Positions 51,778 to 57,913 of a stretch of 64,000 nucleotides of DNA are shown one piece after another; positions within the stretch are counted from its first letter, which is position 1, and each line of letters begins with the position of its first letter. Position numbers and translations under genes: made by a program. The notes below the pieces were generated by a model. That model searched no databases and was not told the origin of the DNA. It saw nothing but the letters and a program-made list of their open reading frames with translations. The stretch lies in IMG/VR virus record IMGVR_UViG_3300042397_003635, one strand, 5' to 3'. Source of the DNA: a virus. Taxonomy: Duplodnaviria > Caudoviricetes.

Positions 51778-51852
<75 letters not shown>

Positions 51853-51889
51853 CTATAATATTTTCAAGATGTGATTGTTGGAAAGTAAA

Positions 51890-52745
51890 AAAGAAAAACG
51901 CTGAGATTATACGTTTTAACGTTAGATCTTTACATAGGATTATTGTTTCCCTACTTATCCAGAGACTTTTGATCTCTACTCTAACAGTGCCGGTTTTTTA
52001 GGTGTACCACTCCTTGAGCTGCGGGTTTGAACTACTCTCCTCATATTATATCTACCAGAACCTGCCGATCCCGTTAACCCTTGCGAGGCTATAGATTTTT
52101 CTGAGAACTCGTATTGGACTTGCGATCCTTTACGGCAACTGACAACCAGTTACTAGGTAGGCACCTTTCGTTCGCAGCTGACGAGCGCTTAAGCTTTGTT
52201 TTAAAATGGATTTTAGTTATTCACCAAAAGAACTTTTTATTTCCAAAGTTTATTGACTCTGTGGATTGTGAAAGTAGTGGCTCGTCACTAGGCCAGCCCC
52301 GATTTTGTCAGGGTCGATACTTAACTACTCTCTGAGATATCCCTACCTCAATTTTTCCGGATTCCTCTTAACTGCAGTCTTGGTAGACTGATGATAAGGT
52401 TAATAACAGCACCACCTGTACATCAACTTGTCTTTCGACTTTAAGGCTCCCATTAAATTGGAGTTCGCAATCATGGAGTCGGATGATTCCACTCCTTGCA
52501 AATATCCTACGAGTTAATCTTATTGAGGTTCCCCTCTCAACTAAACGACCCACATCGCCTAGTCAGCATTCCAGTTCTCCTACAGTGTTACCCTCAGATA
52601 CTTAGGACTTCTGATATCCCGCTTGCCTACTCGAGTTCCTTGCGAAACCGCAGAGCTGATAAGTCATATAGCTCCACTTTATACCTGTTTCCAGGTTTAT
52701 TTGACGATCATAGGCGACCGTTTTGCAACCTAGCAAGCTAGGCTA
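51890..52745 (-). ncRNA. Large structured ncRNA (~850 nt), GOLLD-like
   Basis: No credible ORF; many GNRA-capped hairpins and long-range helices; promoter boxes at 52785-52796; adjacent to tRNA. Confidence 0.7.
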
Positions 52746-53038
52746 CATATATCAATAAGATTCAAAGAACTTGTTTGTGTTACTTATTTATTATACCTAC
52801 TTTATTTGATTTTGGTTTAAATAAGTAAAAAAAAATTAAGGGTTTGAAAAGAGATCCGAAAAAATTTTCGCTAAAAGAGTGTTAAATGTTGATAGGTGCC
52901 ATTTTTGAATTTCTTAAATCTTGAATTTTAAATTCAGAGTCCCTGTCTTAACATCAATTGGATTGCTAGAATAAGTATGTAAATGACGTGCAGTCATATG
53001 CTACCGATTCCTCTTCACTCTTTTCTCTCCCCTATATT

Positions 53039-53467
53039 TTAAATTTTGGTTTTTGCATTGTGAGCTTCTAGCTCCTCTTGCAACATCTCGATTTGAGACT
53101 CCAATTTTTCAATCAATTGATCTTTTTCAACGATTGAGATTTGTGAAGTGTACTTCACTGGAGAATCCATTCGATATGATTGGTGCATTCCTTCTTTGCA
53201 GTCTAAACCTTTCAATTTAGAAACCAAAGATTTTAGTTCAGCTAATCTAAAGATTTTATCATAAACCTTTGCATTAGCTTTGTGAATAGCTGTTTTTAAT
53301 GCAACTAATTCATCAACCGATGTCATTGCTTTTTCCAACGCTTCCTTTGCATCATAAGGACGTGTAGTTCCTTCTTGAATAGAGTTGTACGCTGAAACAT
53401 GCGAAATGTACTCATTAGTTTTTGAAACTAATTTGTTTTTCTGTTTAAGTGCTTTTGTGATATTCAT
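53039..53467 (-). CDS. Coiled-coil protein (DIP1984/DUF6847-like)
   Basis: MNITKALKQKNKL...LKTAIHKAN...QEELEAHN pattern. Confidence 0.6.
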   Translation of the reverse strand: MNITKALKQKNKLVSKTNEYISHVSAYNSIQEGTTRPYDAKEALEKAMTSVDELVALKTAIHKANAKVYDKIFRLAELKSLVSKLKGLDCKEGMHQSYRMDSPVKYTSQISIVEKDQLIEKLESQIEMLQEELEAHNAKTKI

Positions 53468-53522
53468 GTTTTATTGTATTACTTAGTTAATAATAGTTTT
53501 TAATATACCTAAAAAATTTTTG

Positions 53523-53594
53523 AGCGGATGGAGAGAATCGAACTCTCATCTCCAGTTTGGAAGACTGGAGTAATGGCCATTATACGACATCCGC
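53523..53594 (-). tRNA. tRNA-Gly(UCC)
   Basis: Cloverleaf, CT-TCC-AA. Confidence 0.95.
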
Positions 53595-53709
53595 AAATTG
53601 CTGTCTTTCCAAGCTGTCAACCAGTGCACGTTCCAAACCCTTGTTTGGATGACTGCTTCTATTACTAGAATGCTTTATTTGCAAGTCGTCGTTGTGTTGG
53701 ATTTCTGCG

Positions 53710-53815
53710 TAGTCATAATTGGATTCGAACCAATTACAGGCTTTACCATAAAGAGTGCCATTAGCAGTTAATCTCAACCTTGGGGAGGTGCCCTTCAACC
53801 AATGAATTTATGACT
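53710..53815 (-). ncRNA. tRNA-like RNA with expanded anticodon domain
   Basis: 7 bp acceptor stem, canonical T arm (TTCGAAT), D-like arm; ~47 nt in place of an anticodon loop. Confidence 0.65.
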
Positions 53816-53820
53816 ATTTG

Positions 53821-53894
53821 CGGTCCGTACGGGACTCGAACCCGTGATCTCCTACGTGACAGGCAGGCGTCCACTCCAACTGGACCGACAGACC
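53821..53894 (-). tRNA. tRNA-Asp(GUC)
   Basis: Cloverleaf, CT-GTC-AC. Confidence 0.95.
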
Positions 53895-53997
53895 ATTTAG
53901 ATATTTCAGAAGAGGTTACTAAACTTCAGCTCTTCAAAGCTTCTCAGCTTACAGCGTTCCGTCAATTGTTTACGCTGCTAACTTATTCGGTAAAGCG

Positions 53998-54069
53998 TAG
54001 CCCGTACGAGAATCGAACTCGTCTCTCACCCGTGAAAGGGGCGTGTCCTAACCGATAGACTAACGGGCC
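53998..54069 (-). tRNA. tRNA-Glu(UUC)
   Basis: Cloverleaf, CT-TTC-AC. Confidence 0.95.
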
Positions 54070-54263
54070 AAGGACAAATCTTGCATGCTCACCATGCTTG
54101 TGGATTTGATTGAACATAGTTTACTGTTCACCTGTTTTGAGTGCACCAAAGAGCAGGGTCCATCACATAATACCTTGGGTCATGTATACTTCATTGGGTA
54201 GCTACTCCCACGAAGCCAAGGTCTCTTTCAACGGTGCTAATCCGTCTTATGTAAGATTTGTAG

Positions 54264-54337
54264 TGGAGATGACAGGAATCGAACCTGCGACCCTCTGCGT
54301 GCAAGGCAGATGCTCTAGCCAACTGAGCTACATCCCC
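54264..54337 (-). tRNA. tRNA-Ala(UGC)
   Basis: Cloverleaf, G3:U70, CT-TGC-AC. Confidence 0.95.
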
Positions 54338-54382
54338 GTTTACTGTAATTATTATACTATAAACAAGCTAATAATTGCATTG

Positions 54383-54455
54383 AGCCTCCTGTCGGAATCG
54401 AACCAACGACCTACTGATTACAAATCAGTTGCTCTACCAGCTGAGCTAAGGAGGC
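54383..54455 (-). tRNA. tRNA-Thr(UGU)
   Basis: Cloverleaf, TT-TGT-AA. Confidence 0.95.
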
Positions 54456-54574
54456 AAATAGATGAAGTATGACGTCTACTTAATTTACAGCAACCTTCTG
54501 ATAAATTAAGGGTTCTCTTCATCATTGTGGACATAGACTCATCGTCTACTCTTGGGCTTCCACTAGCCCCTTTG

Positions 54575-54645
54575 TTGTCCCGCAAGGATTCGAACCTCGA
54601 TTATCTGGACCAAAACCAGATGTGCTGCCGTTACACCACAGGACA
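54575..54645 (-). tRNA. tRNA-Gln(UUG)
   Basis: Cloverleaf, TT-TTG-GT. Confidence 0.93.
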
Positions 54646-54677
54646 GTATACTTTCCAATACGTCAAAGACCAATTTG

Positions 54678-54759
54678 TGCCTGCAGATGGACTCGAACCA
54701 CCGAACCCGTAAGGGAGCTGATTTACAGTCAGCCGCAATTGCCGCTATGCGATACAGGC
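54678..54759 (-). tRNA. tRNA-Tyr(GUA)
   Basis: Cloverleaf with variable arm, CT-GTA-AA. Confidence 0.95.
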
Positions 54760-54765
54760 ATTATT

Positions 54766-55437
54766 CTATTTTCTAGGCTTTTTAGAAATTACCTCATCGA
54801 TAATTCCATATGCCTTTGCTTCTTCAGCACTAAGCCAAAAGTCTCTAGTTGCATCTGCTTTAACTTGTTCTGGATCTTTATCACAATATCCACCAAGTAA
54901 AACAAATAGCTCGTCATTTACTTTTTGCCACTCTTTCCAATCAATTTCAGCATCTTGGATATTTCCACTGAAACCTCCTGAAGATTGATGCAACATTGTA
55001 GTTGAGTGTTTTAGTGAGCTCCGCTTTCCTTTTGTGCCAGCTCCTAACAACACTGATCCCATTGATGCAGCCATTCCAGTATTAACTGTTCTGATATCAC
55101 AGTTAATATAATCCATTACATCAACCATTGATAAGCCGCTCTTAACACTTCCACCTGGACTATCAATATGCATAGTAATATCTAATCCATCAACTGAATC
55201 CAAAAACATTAGCTGAGCTTGCACAATAGTCGACATATGATCGTTGACTGGACCTGCTACCCAAATTAGTCTTTCCATCATTAATCTGGAAAAAATATCC
55301 ATTTGAGTTGCACGTAATTCGCGCTCTTCTAAAATATAAGGAGTCATTGACGACTCAATCTGCTTTTGATGGTAGTGCATATTCAATGAAGAAATGCCAT
55401 GCTTACTCATCGCGTATTTTTCAAATTCGTTTCTCAT
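54766..55437 (-). CDS. clpP: ATP-dependent Clp protease proteolytic subunit
   Basis: DIFSRL, IDSPGG, AASMG (Ser), MLHQ (His), RDFW (Asp). Confidence 0.96.
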   Translation of the reverse strand: MRNEFEKYAMSKHGISSLNMHYHQKQIESSMTPYILEERELRATQMDIFSRLMMERLIWVAGPVNDHMSTIVQAQLMFLDSVDGLDITMHIDSPGGSVKSGLSMVDVMDYINCDIRTVNTGMAASMGSVLLGAGTKGKRSSLKHSTTMLHQSSGGFSGNIQDAEIDWKEWQKVNDELFVLLGGYCDKDPEQVKADATRDFWLSAEEAKAYGIIDEVISKKPRK

Positions 55438-55468
55438 ACAATTATTATACTAATTTAGTTATACTATG

Positions 55469-55543
55469 TGCTTTCTACAGGGTTCGAACCTGTGACCTCC
55501 TCGGTGTAAACGAGGCGCTCTGAACCAGCTGAGCTAAGAAAGC
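55469..55543 (-). tRNA. tRNA-Val(UAC)
   Basis: Cloverleaf, TT-TAC-AC. Confidence 0.95.
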
Positions 55544-55632
55544 ATATATACGTCTTTCCGTATTGTCATCAATTTTGATGGGCTCATCTGACAGTCTTTA
55601 AACTAACCAGCACTTGAGATTGAAACTCCTTG

Positions 55633-55706
55633 TGATCCCGAATGGACTCGAACCATTGACTCCCTCATTAAAAGTGAGGTGCTCTAACCAACTGAGCTAC
55701 GAGATC
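55633..55706 (-). tRNA. tRNA-Lys(UUU)
   Basis: Cloverleaf, CT-TTT-AA. Confidence 0.95.
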
Positions 55707-55711
55707 ATTTG

Positions 55712-55786
55712 TTGCGGGACTGGGACTCGAACCCAGAACTTCAGCTTATGAGACTGACGAGATAGCCACTTTCTACGCATCCCGCA
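55712..55786 (-). tRNA. tRNA-Met(CAU), probably elongator
   Basis: Paired 1:72, CT-CAT-AA, slightly atypical D arm. Confidence 0.85.
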
Positions 55787-55790
55787 ATAT

Positions 55791-55865
55791 TGGCGTCCCA
55801 GGAAGGATTCGAACCTACGACCTAGCGGTTAACAGCCGCTTGCTCTACCACTGAGCTACTGAGAC
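55791..55865 (-). tRNA. tRNA-Asn(GUU)
   Basis: Cloverleaf, CT-GTT-AA, encoded CCA. Confidence 0.95.
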
Positions 55866-55868
55866 TTT

Positions 55869-55942
55869 TGGCACGCCTGAAAGGATTCGAACCTCTAACA
55901 GCGGTTTTGGAGACCGACATGATACCATTTCACCACAGACGT
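55869..55942 (-). tRNA. tRNA-Trp(CCA)
   Basis: Cloverleaf, CT-CCA-AA, encoded CCA. Confidence 0.93.
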
Positions 55943-55950
55943 GTATGTTG

Positions 55951-56020
55951 AGTACAAGGTTGGAATCGAACCAACACCAATAGTTTTGCAGACCATCCGA
56001 CCACCACGATCATCCTGTAC
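55951..56020 (-). tRNA. tRNA-Cys(GCA)
   Basis: Cloverleaf, CT-GCA-AA, U73. Confidence 0.9.
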
Positions 56021-56027
56021 TTATATG

Positions 56028-56099
56028 TAGTCAATAAAGGACTCGAACCCTTACCTCTTGATCCGTAGTCAAGTGTTCTATCCATTGAACTAATCGACT
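56028..56099 (-). tRNA. tRNA-Arg(ACG)
   Basis: Cloverleaf, CT-ACG-GA. Confidence 0.93.
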
Positions 56100-56196
56100 A
56101 AAACTATGTGTCTCTCCACATCTGTCATACTTCCCTTGTATTCTGTTCTGGCGAATAGCCGTTCCTAACGGTAAAGCAGTATCAAAAACCAGTATG

Positions 56197-56270
56197 TCGA
56201 ACTGGATGGACTCGAACCATCGACCACTCGCGTATCAGGCGAGTGCTCTAACCAACTGAGCTACAGTTCG
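56197..56270 (-). tRNA. tRNA-Ile(GAU)
   Basis: Cloverleaf, CT-GAT-AC. Confidence 0.95.
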
Positions 56271-56282
56271 ATTGAATTAGAG

Positions 56283-56306
56283 CAAATATAAAACAAATAT
56301 TTGACA
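56283..56306 (-). promoter_or_regulatory. Bacteroidota-type promoter (TATATTTG = TAnnTTTG) with upstream TGTCAAA
   Basis: TGTCAAA-N9-TATATTTG ending 12 nt before tRNA-Ile; same layout at 57319-57342. Confidence 0.6.
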
Positions 56307-56317
56307 CTAAAAAATTT

Positions 56318-56746
56318 TTAATCAACTTTTTTCCAATCTTTTTCTTCTCCTAATCTGATAGGAACAAAGAGGGCGAATCCATTATCATCTTCAAAATGAT
56401 TGCAGGTATCAATATAAGTGTTACCGAACTTATATCTCCAATATTCAAATTCCTGCTTCTCAGCATTCCATTTAGCTGTTGTGGCATTACGAGTGTCGCC
56501 AATATAAACTTGACCATGGATCAGGTCGAGTTTTGGAATCGCTCCTCTTTGTATAAGTTTTGGAACATAAAAGTTTTTATATTCTTCGGGCTCTGCTCTA
56601 GGAATAGTTGGAACTTCATGTGGCTCCTTAAATGGAGTAGTTTCAGTTTCCCAATATTCCCTAATACGCTTAGCCCTTTCTGCTCTTTCATGCTCAAGTT
56701 GCTTTTGTATCTTGAGTTTCATAAACTCTTTGTCTATATTTTCCAT
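56318..56746 (-). CDS. Hypothetical protein inside tRNA array
   Basis: 142 aa; G..R...A.W, FE...GFALFVP. Confidence 0.8.
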   Translation of the reverse strand: MENIDKEFMKLKIQKQLEHERAERAKRIREYWETETTPFKEPHEVPTIPRAEPEEYKNFYVPKLIQRGAIPKLDLIHGQVYIGDTRNATTAKWNAEKQEFEYWRYKFGNTYIDTCNHFEDDNGFALFVPIRLGEEKDWKKVD

Positions 56747-56769
56747 AATAACAATTTACTAATTTTAAG

Positions 56770-56854
56770 CGGAAGCTGAAGGATTCGAACCTTCGGGACC
56801 GTTAAGTCCACAGCTTTAGCAAAGCTGCACAATAGACCACTCTGACAAACTTCC
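56770..56854 (-). tRNA. tRNA-Ser(GCU)
   Basis: Cloverleaf with variable arm, TT-GCT-AA. Confidence 0.93.
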
Positions 56855-56855
56855 T

Positions 56856-56932
56856 TGGGGTAATTAATGGGATTCGAACCCATACTAGCAGAACCACAAT
56901 CTGACGTGCTAACCATTAACACTATAACTACC
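56856..56932 (-). tRNA. tRNA-His(GUG)
   Basis: G-1:C73, TT-GTG-GT, encoded CCA. Confidence 0.95.
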
Positions 56933-57008
56933 ATAAAACCCCACTTCACCAGCTTAACGGACTGGCTGCCATATGGGAGTGGGGGTACCCCGTTAATTCG
57001 GGACTCCG

Positions 57009-57081
57009 TGGACAGGGGCGGGATCGAACCGCCGACACCAGGATTTTCAGTCCTGTGCTCTACCTACTGAGCTACCTGTCC
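57009..57081 (-). tRNA. tRNA-Phe(GAA)
   Basis: Cloverleaf, CT-GAA-AA. Confidence 0.95.
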
Positions 57082-57118
57082 AAATACTTTCCAACATGTC
57101 AAAGAACCTATTCTATAA

Positions 57119-57152
57119 AAATAAAAAACCCGAACTTTTTGGGTTCGGGCTC
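57119..57152 (-). terminator. Intrinsic terminator (attenuator candidate) between leader ORF and tRNA array
   Basis: Minus strand CCCGAAC-CCAAAAA-GTTCGGG-TTTTTTATTT. Confidence 0.85.
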
Positions 57153-57186
57153 AGTGTTTCTATAGCTACTAACTTTATAATACCTA

Positions 57187-57285
57187 TCAACTCCTGAACC
57201 CTGTTGCACGATCATTGCCTGTCCACTTCGCATACGCTACTTGGCTAAAGCAATTCTCGGTAATATGGTTCATTTGTGTTTGCAT
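57187..57285 (-). CDS. 32 aa leader peptide MQTQMNHITENCFSQVAYAKWTGNDRATGFRS
   Basis: ATG at 57285 after A-rich leader, double stop TGA TAG; lies between promoter and terminator upstream of tRNA array. Confidence 0.7.
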   Translation of the reverse strand: MQTQMNHITENCFSQVAYAKWTGNDRATGFRS

Positions 57286-57306
57286 CACTTTTGTTATTTG
57301 TATAGT

Positions 57307-57342
57307 TATTTATATTAGCTAATATACAAAAAGTTTTTGACA
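57307..57342 (-). promoter_or_regulatory. Tandem promoters of tRNA leader: TGTCAAA-N9-TATATTAG and late-type TATAAATA
   Basis: Boxes at 57336-57342, 57319-57326 and 57307-57314. Confidence 0.6.
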
Positions 57343-57460
57343 ATTAGCACTTTTATTTAAAAAATTTAAAAATTAACCTTCAGGGGCTTCACCTGCCTTC
57401 TAGTATACTTAGAACCTCCAATCTAATGGTCAGTTCAGAGCTTTTGACTTTGGTTAATTT

Positions 57461-57913
57461 TTATGCTGTGTGTTCAATCATTACCCTTACACAAGTTTGA
57501 GGTTGGGCTTCGTTCATTAAGAAGTTATTAATATACCCCATAATATTGGCACTTCCAATTGGATTTGCTGAGTGAGTATAGACCAGTGGAAATGGAAAAG
57601 GCTTTCCGCGTTTTACATCTCTCGCCAAGTCGATCCACTTTGGATTCTCATTATAAAACTGGTCAACTAACCATTTAGCACAGTCATATCCAGTTTTCTC
57701 ATTAATGTGAGTATAATCTAAAATATAATTAGGGCTTACATTATTGAAGTACTCACTCATGGCAGAATCCCCTAAGTCATGGTCAAGAGAAATTACTTCA
57801 ATATTTGCTAAACCTGTTTCCTTAACTAGGCTTACAAATTCTTCATAATTTCTAACTACAACCCAGTCAGTTCCAACTGGAGTTCGGACATCGTCTAAAT
57901 AAATTCTAATCAT
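57461..57913 (-). CDS. Cyclic-phosphate-processing receiver domain protein
   Basis: IYLDDVR, SLDHDLG, TGYD, HSANP.G. Confidence 0.8.
   Translation of the reverse strand: MIRIYLDDVRTPVGTDWVVVRNYEEFVSLVKETGLANIEVISLDHDLGDSAMSEYFNNVSPNYILDYTHINEKTGYDCAKWLVDQFYNENPKWIDLARDVKRGKPFPFPLVYTHSANPIGSANIMGYINNFLMNEAQPQTCVRVMIEHTA

Follow-up and report, generated by a model that had tools for sequence, protein, structure and literature searches.

The tRNA array and its surroundings

The minus strand of the window, by which we mean the whole 64,000-nucleotide stretch of phage DNA that was analysed (IMG/VR record IMGVR_UViG_3300042397_003635), carries an array of 19 tRNA genes for 18 amino acids at positions 51778-57081. 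ARAGORN detects 18 tRNAs between 57081 and 51778, and Rfam adds a nineteenth at 55786-55712 (-), which has the anticodon CAT, scores 42.8 bits and was missed by ARAGORN; in the relatives L003 and L084, a CAT tRNA is called at the position matching 55712-55786. The original prediction had counted 19 tRNAs that serve 18 amino acids, and the two programs together reproduce this number. The order of the array is Phe, His, Ser, Ile, Arg, Cys, Trp, Asn, (CAT), Lys, Val, Tyr, Gln, Thr, Ala, Glu, Asp, Gly and Met, and two of its tRNAs have the anticodon CAT. The boundary of the array is natural, rather than set in hindsight, because the next tRNA, Leu-UAA (50575), is located past two ORFs on the opposite strand. 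No leader or terminator element was found upstream of the other tRNAs of the window (Leu-UAA, Met, Pro, Arg-UCU, Leu-UAG and Ser-UGA).

The array also contains three ORFs and two known RNAs. Two protein genes are located at 54766-55437 (-) and 56318-56746 (-); one of the products is a ClpP-family protease (PF00574, E 2e-56), and the other is a protein of 142 amino acids and unknown function (phrog_18490). Relatives of the latter occur at 35 IMG/VR loci, and tRNA genes are present within 6 kb at about 25 of these. A GOLLD RNA (Rfam RF02032, 242.6 bits, E 1e-68) lies at 51898-52332 (-) between tRNA-Gly and the last CAT tRNA and may explain, at least in part, the region of about 51853-53000, which contains only short ORFs of up to 81 amino acids. 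A freshwater-1 RNA (RF02979), which scores 72.4 bits against a gathering score of 72, is found at 54105-54167 (-) between the Ala and Glu tRNAs.

The conserved pre-tRNA motif GTTCTTTGACATGTTGG (57091-57107, -), which was recognized by alignment and pattern scan, ends 9 nt before tRNA-Phe. Over about 130 IMG/VR sites, the motif GTTCTTTGACATRTTGG ends at a median distance of 10 nt before the first tRNA of the block, and its position relative to this tRNA holds whichever tRNA follows (86 of 129 sites). The motif is similar to the TTTGACA -33 box found in leader promoters; a role as a promoter was rejected since the spacing to any -7-like box is wrong, and it may instead be a pre-tRNA processing or pause signal. 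Just upstream of tRNA-Ile, a box scan revealed an exact -7 box, TATATTTG (56283-56290, -). Internal promoters had been suspected at 56283, 55444 and 54351, and it is the first of these three sites at which the exact box was found. The box at 56290-56283 may act as an internal promoter that bypasses the switch described below for the distal part of the array, and it could leave 16 of the 19 tRNAs partly independent of this switch.

The leader ORF and its peptide

The array is preceded by a conserved block consisting of a promoter region, an ORF, a switch and a spacer (57082-57355, -), which was delimited by alignment and by nhmmer across all loci. The leader ORF comprises 32 codons (57187-57285, -), starts with an ATG at 57285 and ends with a TGA at 57189-57187, which is followed by an in-frame TAG, exactly as had been read from the sequence before. 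Searches of the leader region against Pfam, PHROG and Rfam returned no match. The encoded peptide contains 18 kinds of amino acids and lacks Leu and Pro, and the 18 kinds are identical to those specified by the array, as the original prediction had stated. The agreement that was claimed at the codon level was also recovered: the Ser codons AGC and AGT fit the in-array Ser-GCU, and the CGT codon fits the in-array Arg-ACG. AGG at codon 31, which was omitted from the first reading, needs the out-of-array Arg-UCU, and the codons ACC, GGC and AGG are not read by the array anticodons through simple wobble. Codon runs are absent from the window leader, and most amino acids occur just once or twice.

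The probability of obtaining such a peptide by chance was assessed with 14,407 segments of 32 residues from the window's own ORFs of at least 100 amino acids. At least 18 kinds of amino acids are present in 2.6% of these segments, and both Leu and Pro are absent in 3.7%; the exact 18-kind set of the leader was found in none of them (0/14,407).

The best candidate for a leader promoter is the -7 box TATATTAG (57319-57326, -), which differs by one mismatch from the Bacteroidota consensus TAnnTTTG; the TTG (-33) of the window leader is off the canonical 19-nt spacing. The promoter boxes that had been claimed here did not stand up, as no sigma-70 match is present and the imperfect Bacteroidota -7 box is the closest candidate. 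A sigma-70 scan of the minus strand gave no convincing leader promoter, and this is the wrong model for a Bacteroidota-type host. Exact TTG-N19-TAnnTTTG boxes are present in other leader families; an exact -7 box was found in 34 of 46 elements, 18 of which have a TTG at a distance of 19-20 nt. Since the promoter of the window type is imperfect, transcription of the window leader may start further upstream. The product of the adjacent upstream gene (57461-57913, -) has a cyclic-phosphate-processing receiver domain (Pfam PF20274 cREC_REC, E 1.5e-21) and is 58% identical to a protein of Flavobacterium phage immuto. Contigs holding the window sequence come from lake and freshwater metagenomes. Based on the Flavobacterium phage protein, the origin of the contigs and the TTG-N19-TAnnTTTG promoters of the relatives, the host is probably a freshwater member of the Bacteroidota.

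A putative RNA switch between the leader and the array

A terminator hairpin is located 37 nt downstream of the leader ORF, and tRNA-Phe follows 38 nt beyond the terminator. This intrinsic terminator (57117-57152, -; -13.9 kcal/mol) consists of a G+C-rich stem of 10 pairs, GAGCCCGAAC / GUUCGGGUUU (57152-57126), a 7-nt loop and a U-tract that extends to 57117. The strong terminator proposed earlier is thus confirmed by its 10-pair stem and U-tract, and the pattern CCCGAAC..TTCGGGTTTT is unique, with a single occurrence in the window and none in 100 shuffles. No exact Bacteroidota -7 box and no sigma-70-type promoter match was found on the minus strand in the gap between the terminator and tRNA-Phe. 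Neither the T-box covariance model nor any other Rfam leader family matched positions 57082-57500 at E values of up to 0.1.

Folding of the RNA indicates that four segments could take part in alternative structures. Segment 1, UGAACC (codons 5-7; 57267-57272, -), pairs with segment 2 in both the centroid and the MFE fold of the untranslated RNA. Segment 2, GGGUUCAGG (codons 29-31; 57193-57201, -), is the 5' half of the predicted antiterminator, and the stop codon is located 12 nt after its start. Segment 3, CUGAGCCCGAACCC (57141-57154, -), is common to the antiterminator, which it forms with segment 2, and the terminator, which it forms with segment 4. It had been suggested that TGAACC sequesters the antiterminator segment, and this pairing of 57272-57267 with segment 2 (GGUUCA) is indeed present in the folds of the free RNA. 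The pairing of GGGTTCAGG with CCCGAACCC at 8 of 9 positions exists as claimed; however, RNAfold favours another register, in which GGGUUCAG (57201-57194) and CUGAGCCC (57154-57147) form an antiterminator of 8 bp.

The fold of the free leader RNA combines the 1:2 pairing with the full terminator (-47.0 kcal/mol). When the footprint of a ribosome is masked at the stop codon, the fold keeps the terminator. Masking of the footprint at codon 12 results in the 8-bp antiterminator (2:3 structure, -22.6 kcal/mol) and disrupts the terminator, which is reduced to a shifted weak hairpin. The leader folds more stably than shuffled sequences (z of -3.6, 0/200). The sensor codons of the proposed switch are restricted to codons 2 to about 24, and Asp25, Arg26, AGG31 and the later codons fall in the masked zone. 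The sensor zone of the window leader samples 16 amino acids, and with these 16 amino acids and a single array of 19 tRNAs it is the broadest version among the leaders found. Lake metatranscriptome contigs spanning 57035-57315 and 56702-57201 cross the terminator, which speaks for presence only, as these are assembled contigs from which ends, strand and level are not readable and DNA carry-over is possible.

Conservation of the element in related phages

Megablast and blastn searches of the leader against 50,697 GenBank phages returned tRNA matches only, and nothing close to the window is present among the GenBank phages. Among cultured phages, the nearest relative is immuto, which carries only four tRNAs and lacks the leader element, and GenBank phages provide no cultured model. 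Gene order is shared by five IMG/VR contigs, in which the 274-nt block from about 57355 to the tRNA is approximately 97% identical and the DNA upstream of the block is diverged, full of indels, scrambled or deleted. The leader ORF is kept in all close relatives. Changes in the ORF among the five contigs comprise three synonymous ones and the replacements Thr9Ile, Ala27Asp-Thr28Leu and Ser32Arg (CGT); with the exception of Leu, the replacements stay within the amino acids of the array, and segments 1 to 4 are invariant across these contigs. The claimed absence of Leu holds for the window but not for four close relatives, which have Asp-Leu at codons 27-28.

In distant contigs, an nhmmer profile of the block matches only the part formed by the terminator and the spacer. 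These distant sites nevertheless have a promoter box, an ATG-initiated ORF of about 31-34 codons and a copy of the terminator 3'-arm near the end of the ORF, followed by a terminator, the motif GTTCTTTGACATRTTGG and a tRNA, and their peptides are unrelated to that of the window. Hence, short and poorly conserved ORFs, which the original prediction had proposed to look for upstream of related tRNA arrays, are present, and the architecture is kept. Three pattern scans of IMG/VR yielded about 300 loci and 39 non-redundant leader families. An ORF of 19-42 codons that ends just before the terminator is found at 66 of 76 sites anchored on the pre-tRNA motif, and in the pooled scans, phage contigs have the ORF and at least three tRNAs at 46 of 53 unique elements with this type of terminator. 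In 596 Gb of bacterial and archaeal genomes, there are 26 occurrences of the three-segment pattern, none of which has a tRNA within 3 kb.

Some of the relatives have additional tRNA features. At 5359-5428 of L091, between the leader terminator and the pre-tRNA motif, there is a tRNA-like stretch with a UGC (Ala) anticodon loop, which is not called by ARAGORN; the relative L096 has a called tRNA-Ala at this place. ARAGORN also detects a tRNA with the anticodon CUA just upstream of the L123 leader and one with the anticodon UUA inside the L277 array. These tRNAs, which would read UAG and UAA, hint at stop-codon suppression in some of these phages.

The stems of the terminators vary among relatives (CCCGAC, CCATCTCC, CCCTCC, CCGAGAT, CCCTTAGC, ACCTCGGA and others), and the segment at the end of the ORF changes along with them. 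Across 38 distinct stems, the longest Watson-Crick run of the ORF-end segment with its own left arm averages 7.11, compared with 5.04 (sd 0.17) after permutation, and runs of at least 7 are formed by 25 of the 38 stems versus 4.0 expected (0/100,000 permutations). Compensatory pairing of the antiterminator, which had been put forward as a check, is therefore borne out by covariation between the ORF end and the terminator arm. All three reading frames are used for the GTTCGG segment (31, 9 and 2 elements), and the stop codon is located between -5 and +24 nt from the start of this segment in 46 elements. The use of three frames together with a nearby stop codon argues for a role of the segment at the RNA level that is timed by the terminating ribosome.

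Leader peptides reflect the tRNAs encoded downstream

The relationship between peptides and tRNAs was analysed with arrays defined as same-strand tRNAs separated by gaps of up to 1 kb. In 15 families collected via the CCCGAAC stem, 298 of 439 non-initiator residues are within the family's own downstream tRNA set, compared with 213.8 (sd 13.7) for permuted sets; the permutation test suggested for the amino-acid match was thus positive, as none of 200,000 permutations reached 298. With eight independent array types there are 40,320 possible assignments, and the true one is the single best of them for amino acids as well as for codons. A second set of 30 families was anchored on the pre-tRNA motif alone, without selection for stem or peptide, and gave 610 matches versus 431.6 (sd 19) after permutation at the amino-acid level and 521 versus 338.4 (sd 18.4) at the codon level. 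The match is robust to five definitions of the array gap and to trimming of the last eight residues (z 7.8-11.8). Overall, the tracking of tRNAs by the peptides has a z of 8-12 and was reached in 0 of 50,000-200,000 permutations. Each of the 19 amino acids tested (Met was excluded) is commoner in leaders whose array has a matching tRNA. In one family, for instance, tRNAs for Gly, Trp, Cys, Gln, Glu and Asp are found downstream of a leader with the run GCDWQQE; in another, the leader is rich in L, D, A, V, E and W, and the tRNAs that follow are those for Asp, Glu, Val, Leu, Ala and Trp; and in a third, the leader has the run TTTSSSTSTSSCDED upstream of tRNAs for Ser, Thr, Cys, His, Glu and Asp. 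Some leader families have a C-x-x-W-[YF]-x-R motif in common, and the composition signal is therefore partly inherited and non-independent.

The agreement extends to synonymous codons. For arrays with just one of two isoacceptor classes, the leader favours the codons of that class: the ratio of ATA to ATY codons for Ile is 14:3 in leaders of arrays with Ile-UAU and 7:35 in those with Ile-GAU (p 3.7e-6). The choice between AGR and CGN codons for Arg follows the isoacceptor as well (p 1.3e-4), as do the Leu codons (p 0.03), and the pooled tracking of isoacceptors by synonymous codons has a p of 1.1e-8. Such a choice would not be predicted for a functional peptide. A single phage contig, L091, has two complementary leaders. 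The first leader precedes 13 tRNAs (Phe, Lys, Val, Trp, Arg-ACG, Cys, His, Ile-GAU, Met, Thr, Asp, Ser-UGA and Glu) and uses TCN codons for Ser and CGN codons for Arg. The second leader precedes 12 tRNAs, which extend from Leu-UAA to Ser-GCU with Arg-UCU, Pro, Asn, Leu-UAG, Tyr, Ile-UAU, Met, two Gly and Gln in between, and it uses AGA and ATA throughout and AGT at three of five Ser codons. Because the two leaders of this phage are complementary, a common phage codon bias cannot account for the codon match.

Proposed mechanism and alternative explanations

The locus combines a leader ORF, a terminator, a covarying antiterminator, a suitably placed stop codon and a match between leader codons and downstream products. 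Comparison of relatives supports reading it as an attenuator, with positive results for the ORF architecture, the codon match and the covariation, and it is likely that the element is a ribosome-mediated transcription attenuator, in which a leader peptide controls a phage tRNA array. From the sequences compared here, we infer that the leader is translated and that read-through is driven by stalling. Transcription would start approximately 25-30 nt before the ATG, and a ribosome would translate the leader behind the polymerase. If all codons are decoded fast, the ribosome would arrive at the stop codon and cover segment 2, which would allow the 3:4 terminator to form and end transcription 38 nt before tRNA-Phe. 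A stall at any of the codons from 2 to about 24, caused by scarcity of the charged tRNA, would leave segment 2 free to pair with segment 3; the 2:3 pairing would block the terminator, and the polymerase would enter the tRNA genes. The tRNAs of the array would then relieve the stall, resulting in a negative feedback that supplies tRNAs on demand, since the leader is written in codons that are read by the tRNAs under its control. In untranslated RNA, the 1:2 pairing would lead to termination by default. According to this model, the phage probably makes these tRNAs only when ribosomes slow down on the leader codons. The sensitivity to a mild shortage may be low because most leader amino acids occur only once or twice.

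Candidates for the natural trigger would be the loss or cleavage of host tRNAs, host shut-off and the demand arising from phage codon usage. The switch can be read as a sensor of the depletion or cleavage of host tRNAs, and negative feedback on the supply of array tRNAs fits just as well. It is conceivable, though rather doubtful, that the leader is an inducible counter-defence sensor, in which the loss of any of about 16 host tRNA species turns on the replacement tRNAs; the host tRNAs could then be depleted by a host anticodon nuclease, by another defence that removes tRNAs or by host shut-off brought about by the phage itself. The receiver-domain gene next to the element belongs to cyclic-phosphate RNA repair.

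The architecture alone is silent on what slows the ribosome, and the switch could be coupled to translation with a different input or polarity, responding to general translation capacity or coupling rather than to specific tRNAs. The codon match would then be a by-product of phage-wide use of the codons served by the phage tRNAs, which do generally match phage-preferred codons, and 18 amino acids that are sampled once or twice each are what a generic probe would look like. However, the match is destroyed by permuting tRNA sets among similarly AT-rich phages, arrays within a single phage (L091) have complementary leaders, and common codon bias leaves the isoacceptor-specific choice of synonymous codons unexplained; this explanation is therefore considered unlikely.

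Two further explanations would uncouple the ORF from the tRNAs. Given the compact form of promoter, ORF and terminator, the strong sequence conservation and the peptide motif common to some families, the block might be an independent small gene, specifying a micro-protein or a small RNA and equipped with a promoter and a terminator of its own, and the tRNAs would be transcribed from another promoter; indeed, L091 and L096 have a -7 box between the terminator and the first tRNA. In the window, however, the 38 nt from the terminator to tRNA-Phe contain no promoter match, and Pfam, PHROG and Rfam matches to the element are absent. A small gene would also not be expected to encode peptides that are unrelated among array types and yet match their own tRNAs, or to contain near its end a copy of the terminator 3'-arm that covaries with the stem and is read in all three frames, which makes this explanation quite improbable. 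The hairpin could also be the terminator of an upstream operon, as it is located 309 nt downstream of the cREC-domain gene (57913-57461) on the same strand, and the ORF would then be a chance frame in an AT-rich spacer. This is very hard to reconcile with the invariance of the ORF block next to a diverged gene-adjacent spacer, with L005, in which the spacer is deleted and the block is kept, with L039, in which a different gene precedes the element, and with the recurrence of the short ORF just before the terminator at 66 of the 76 motif-anchored sites.

Comparison with known regulatory systems

Multivalent attenuators are known from amino-acid operons of enterobacteria, in which the leader of ilvGMEDA senses Ile, Leu and Val and thrL senses Thr and Ile; further examples are trpL, hisL, pheL and leuL, and classical attenuators contain runs of regulatory codons. 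Enterobacterial leaders and the phage element have in common a short leader ORF (putatively translated in the phage), the 1:2, 2:3 and 3:4 hairpins, a terminator that precedes the genes, a stop codon that masks segment 2 and codons that reflect the product. The phage element differs from the trpL/hisL/ilvL class in that tRNA genes are located downstream and the leader is free of codon runs. Whereas enterobacterial leaders control enzymes and contain runs of one to three amino acids, the phage leaders would control tRNA genes and contain 16-18 amino acids, once or twice each. Moreover, the speed of decoding would be restored by the tRNAs themselves, and the element is phage-encoded and found in a Bacteroidota-type promoter context.

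The pheM leader of E. coli pheST resembles the phage element in that a translation component serving the sensed codons is attenuated; however, pheM responds to a single amino acid and regulates a protein enzyme, and no tRNA gene takes part. T-box riboswitches likewise choose between a terminator and an antiterminator, thereby tuning genes for aminoacyl-tRNA supply to tRNA status, but they bind one uncharged tRNA via a specifier codon and require neither a ribosome nor an ORF. Control of tRNA and rRNA promoters by ppGpp and DksA also fits tRNA transcription to translational demand. In contrast to the phage element, it acts globally at initiation and lowers tRNA synthesis in starvation, whereas the phage element is predicted to act after initiation, array by array, and to raise tRNA levels under slow decoding. 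To our knowledge, leader-peptide attenuation has not previously been described for tRNA genes, and a full-text literature search, which covered few subscription journals, found no leader peptide or attenuator before tRNA genes. The principle of attenuation is known, and its apparent application to tRNA genes would be new.

Implications for phage tRNA biology

Why phages carry tRNA genes and how these are controlled has been debated for about 50 years; proposed roles include codon compensation, replacement of host tRNAs after their degradation and escape from anticodon nucleases. If the proposed mechanism is true, the phage gauges the speed of decoding codon by codon and produces tRNAs on demand, and the leader families would represent a natural set of putative ribosome-stalling sensors for multiple amino acids. 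The signature of promoter, mini-ORF, three-segment switch and pre-tRNA motif flags tRNA transcription units in uncultured large phages. The mechanism would furthermore link tRNA-targeting defences to phage tRNA expression in a manner that is directly testable. Should the counter-defence function prove true, each tRNA block in freshwater Bacteroidota phages would be a separately gated, codon-addressed module.
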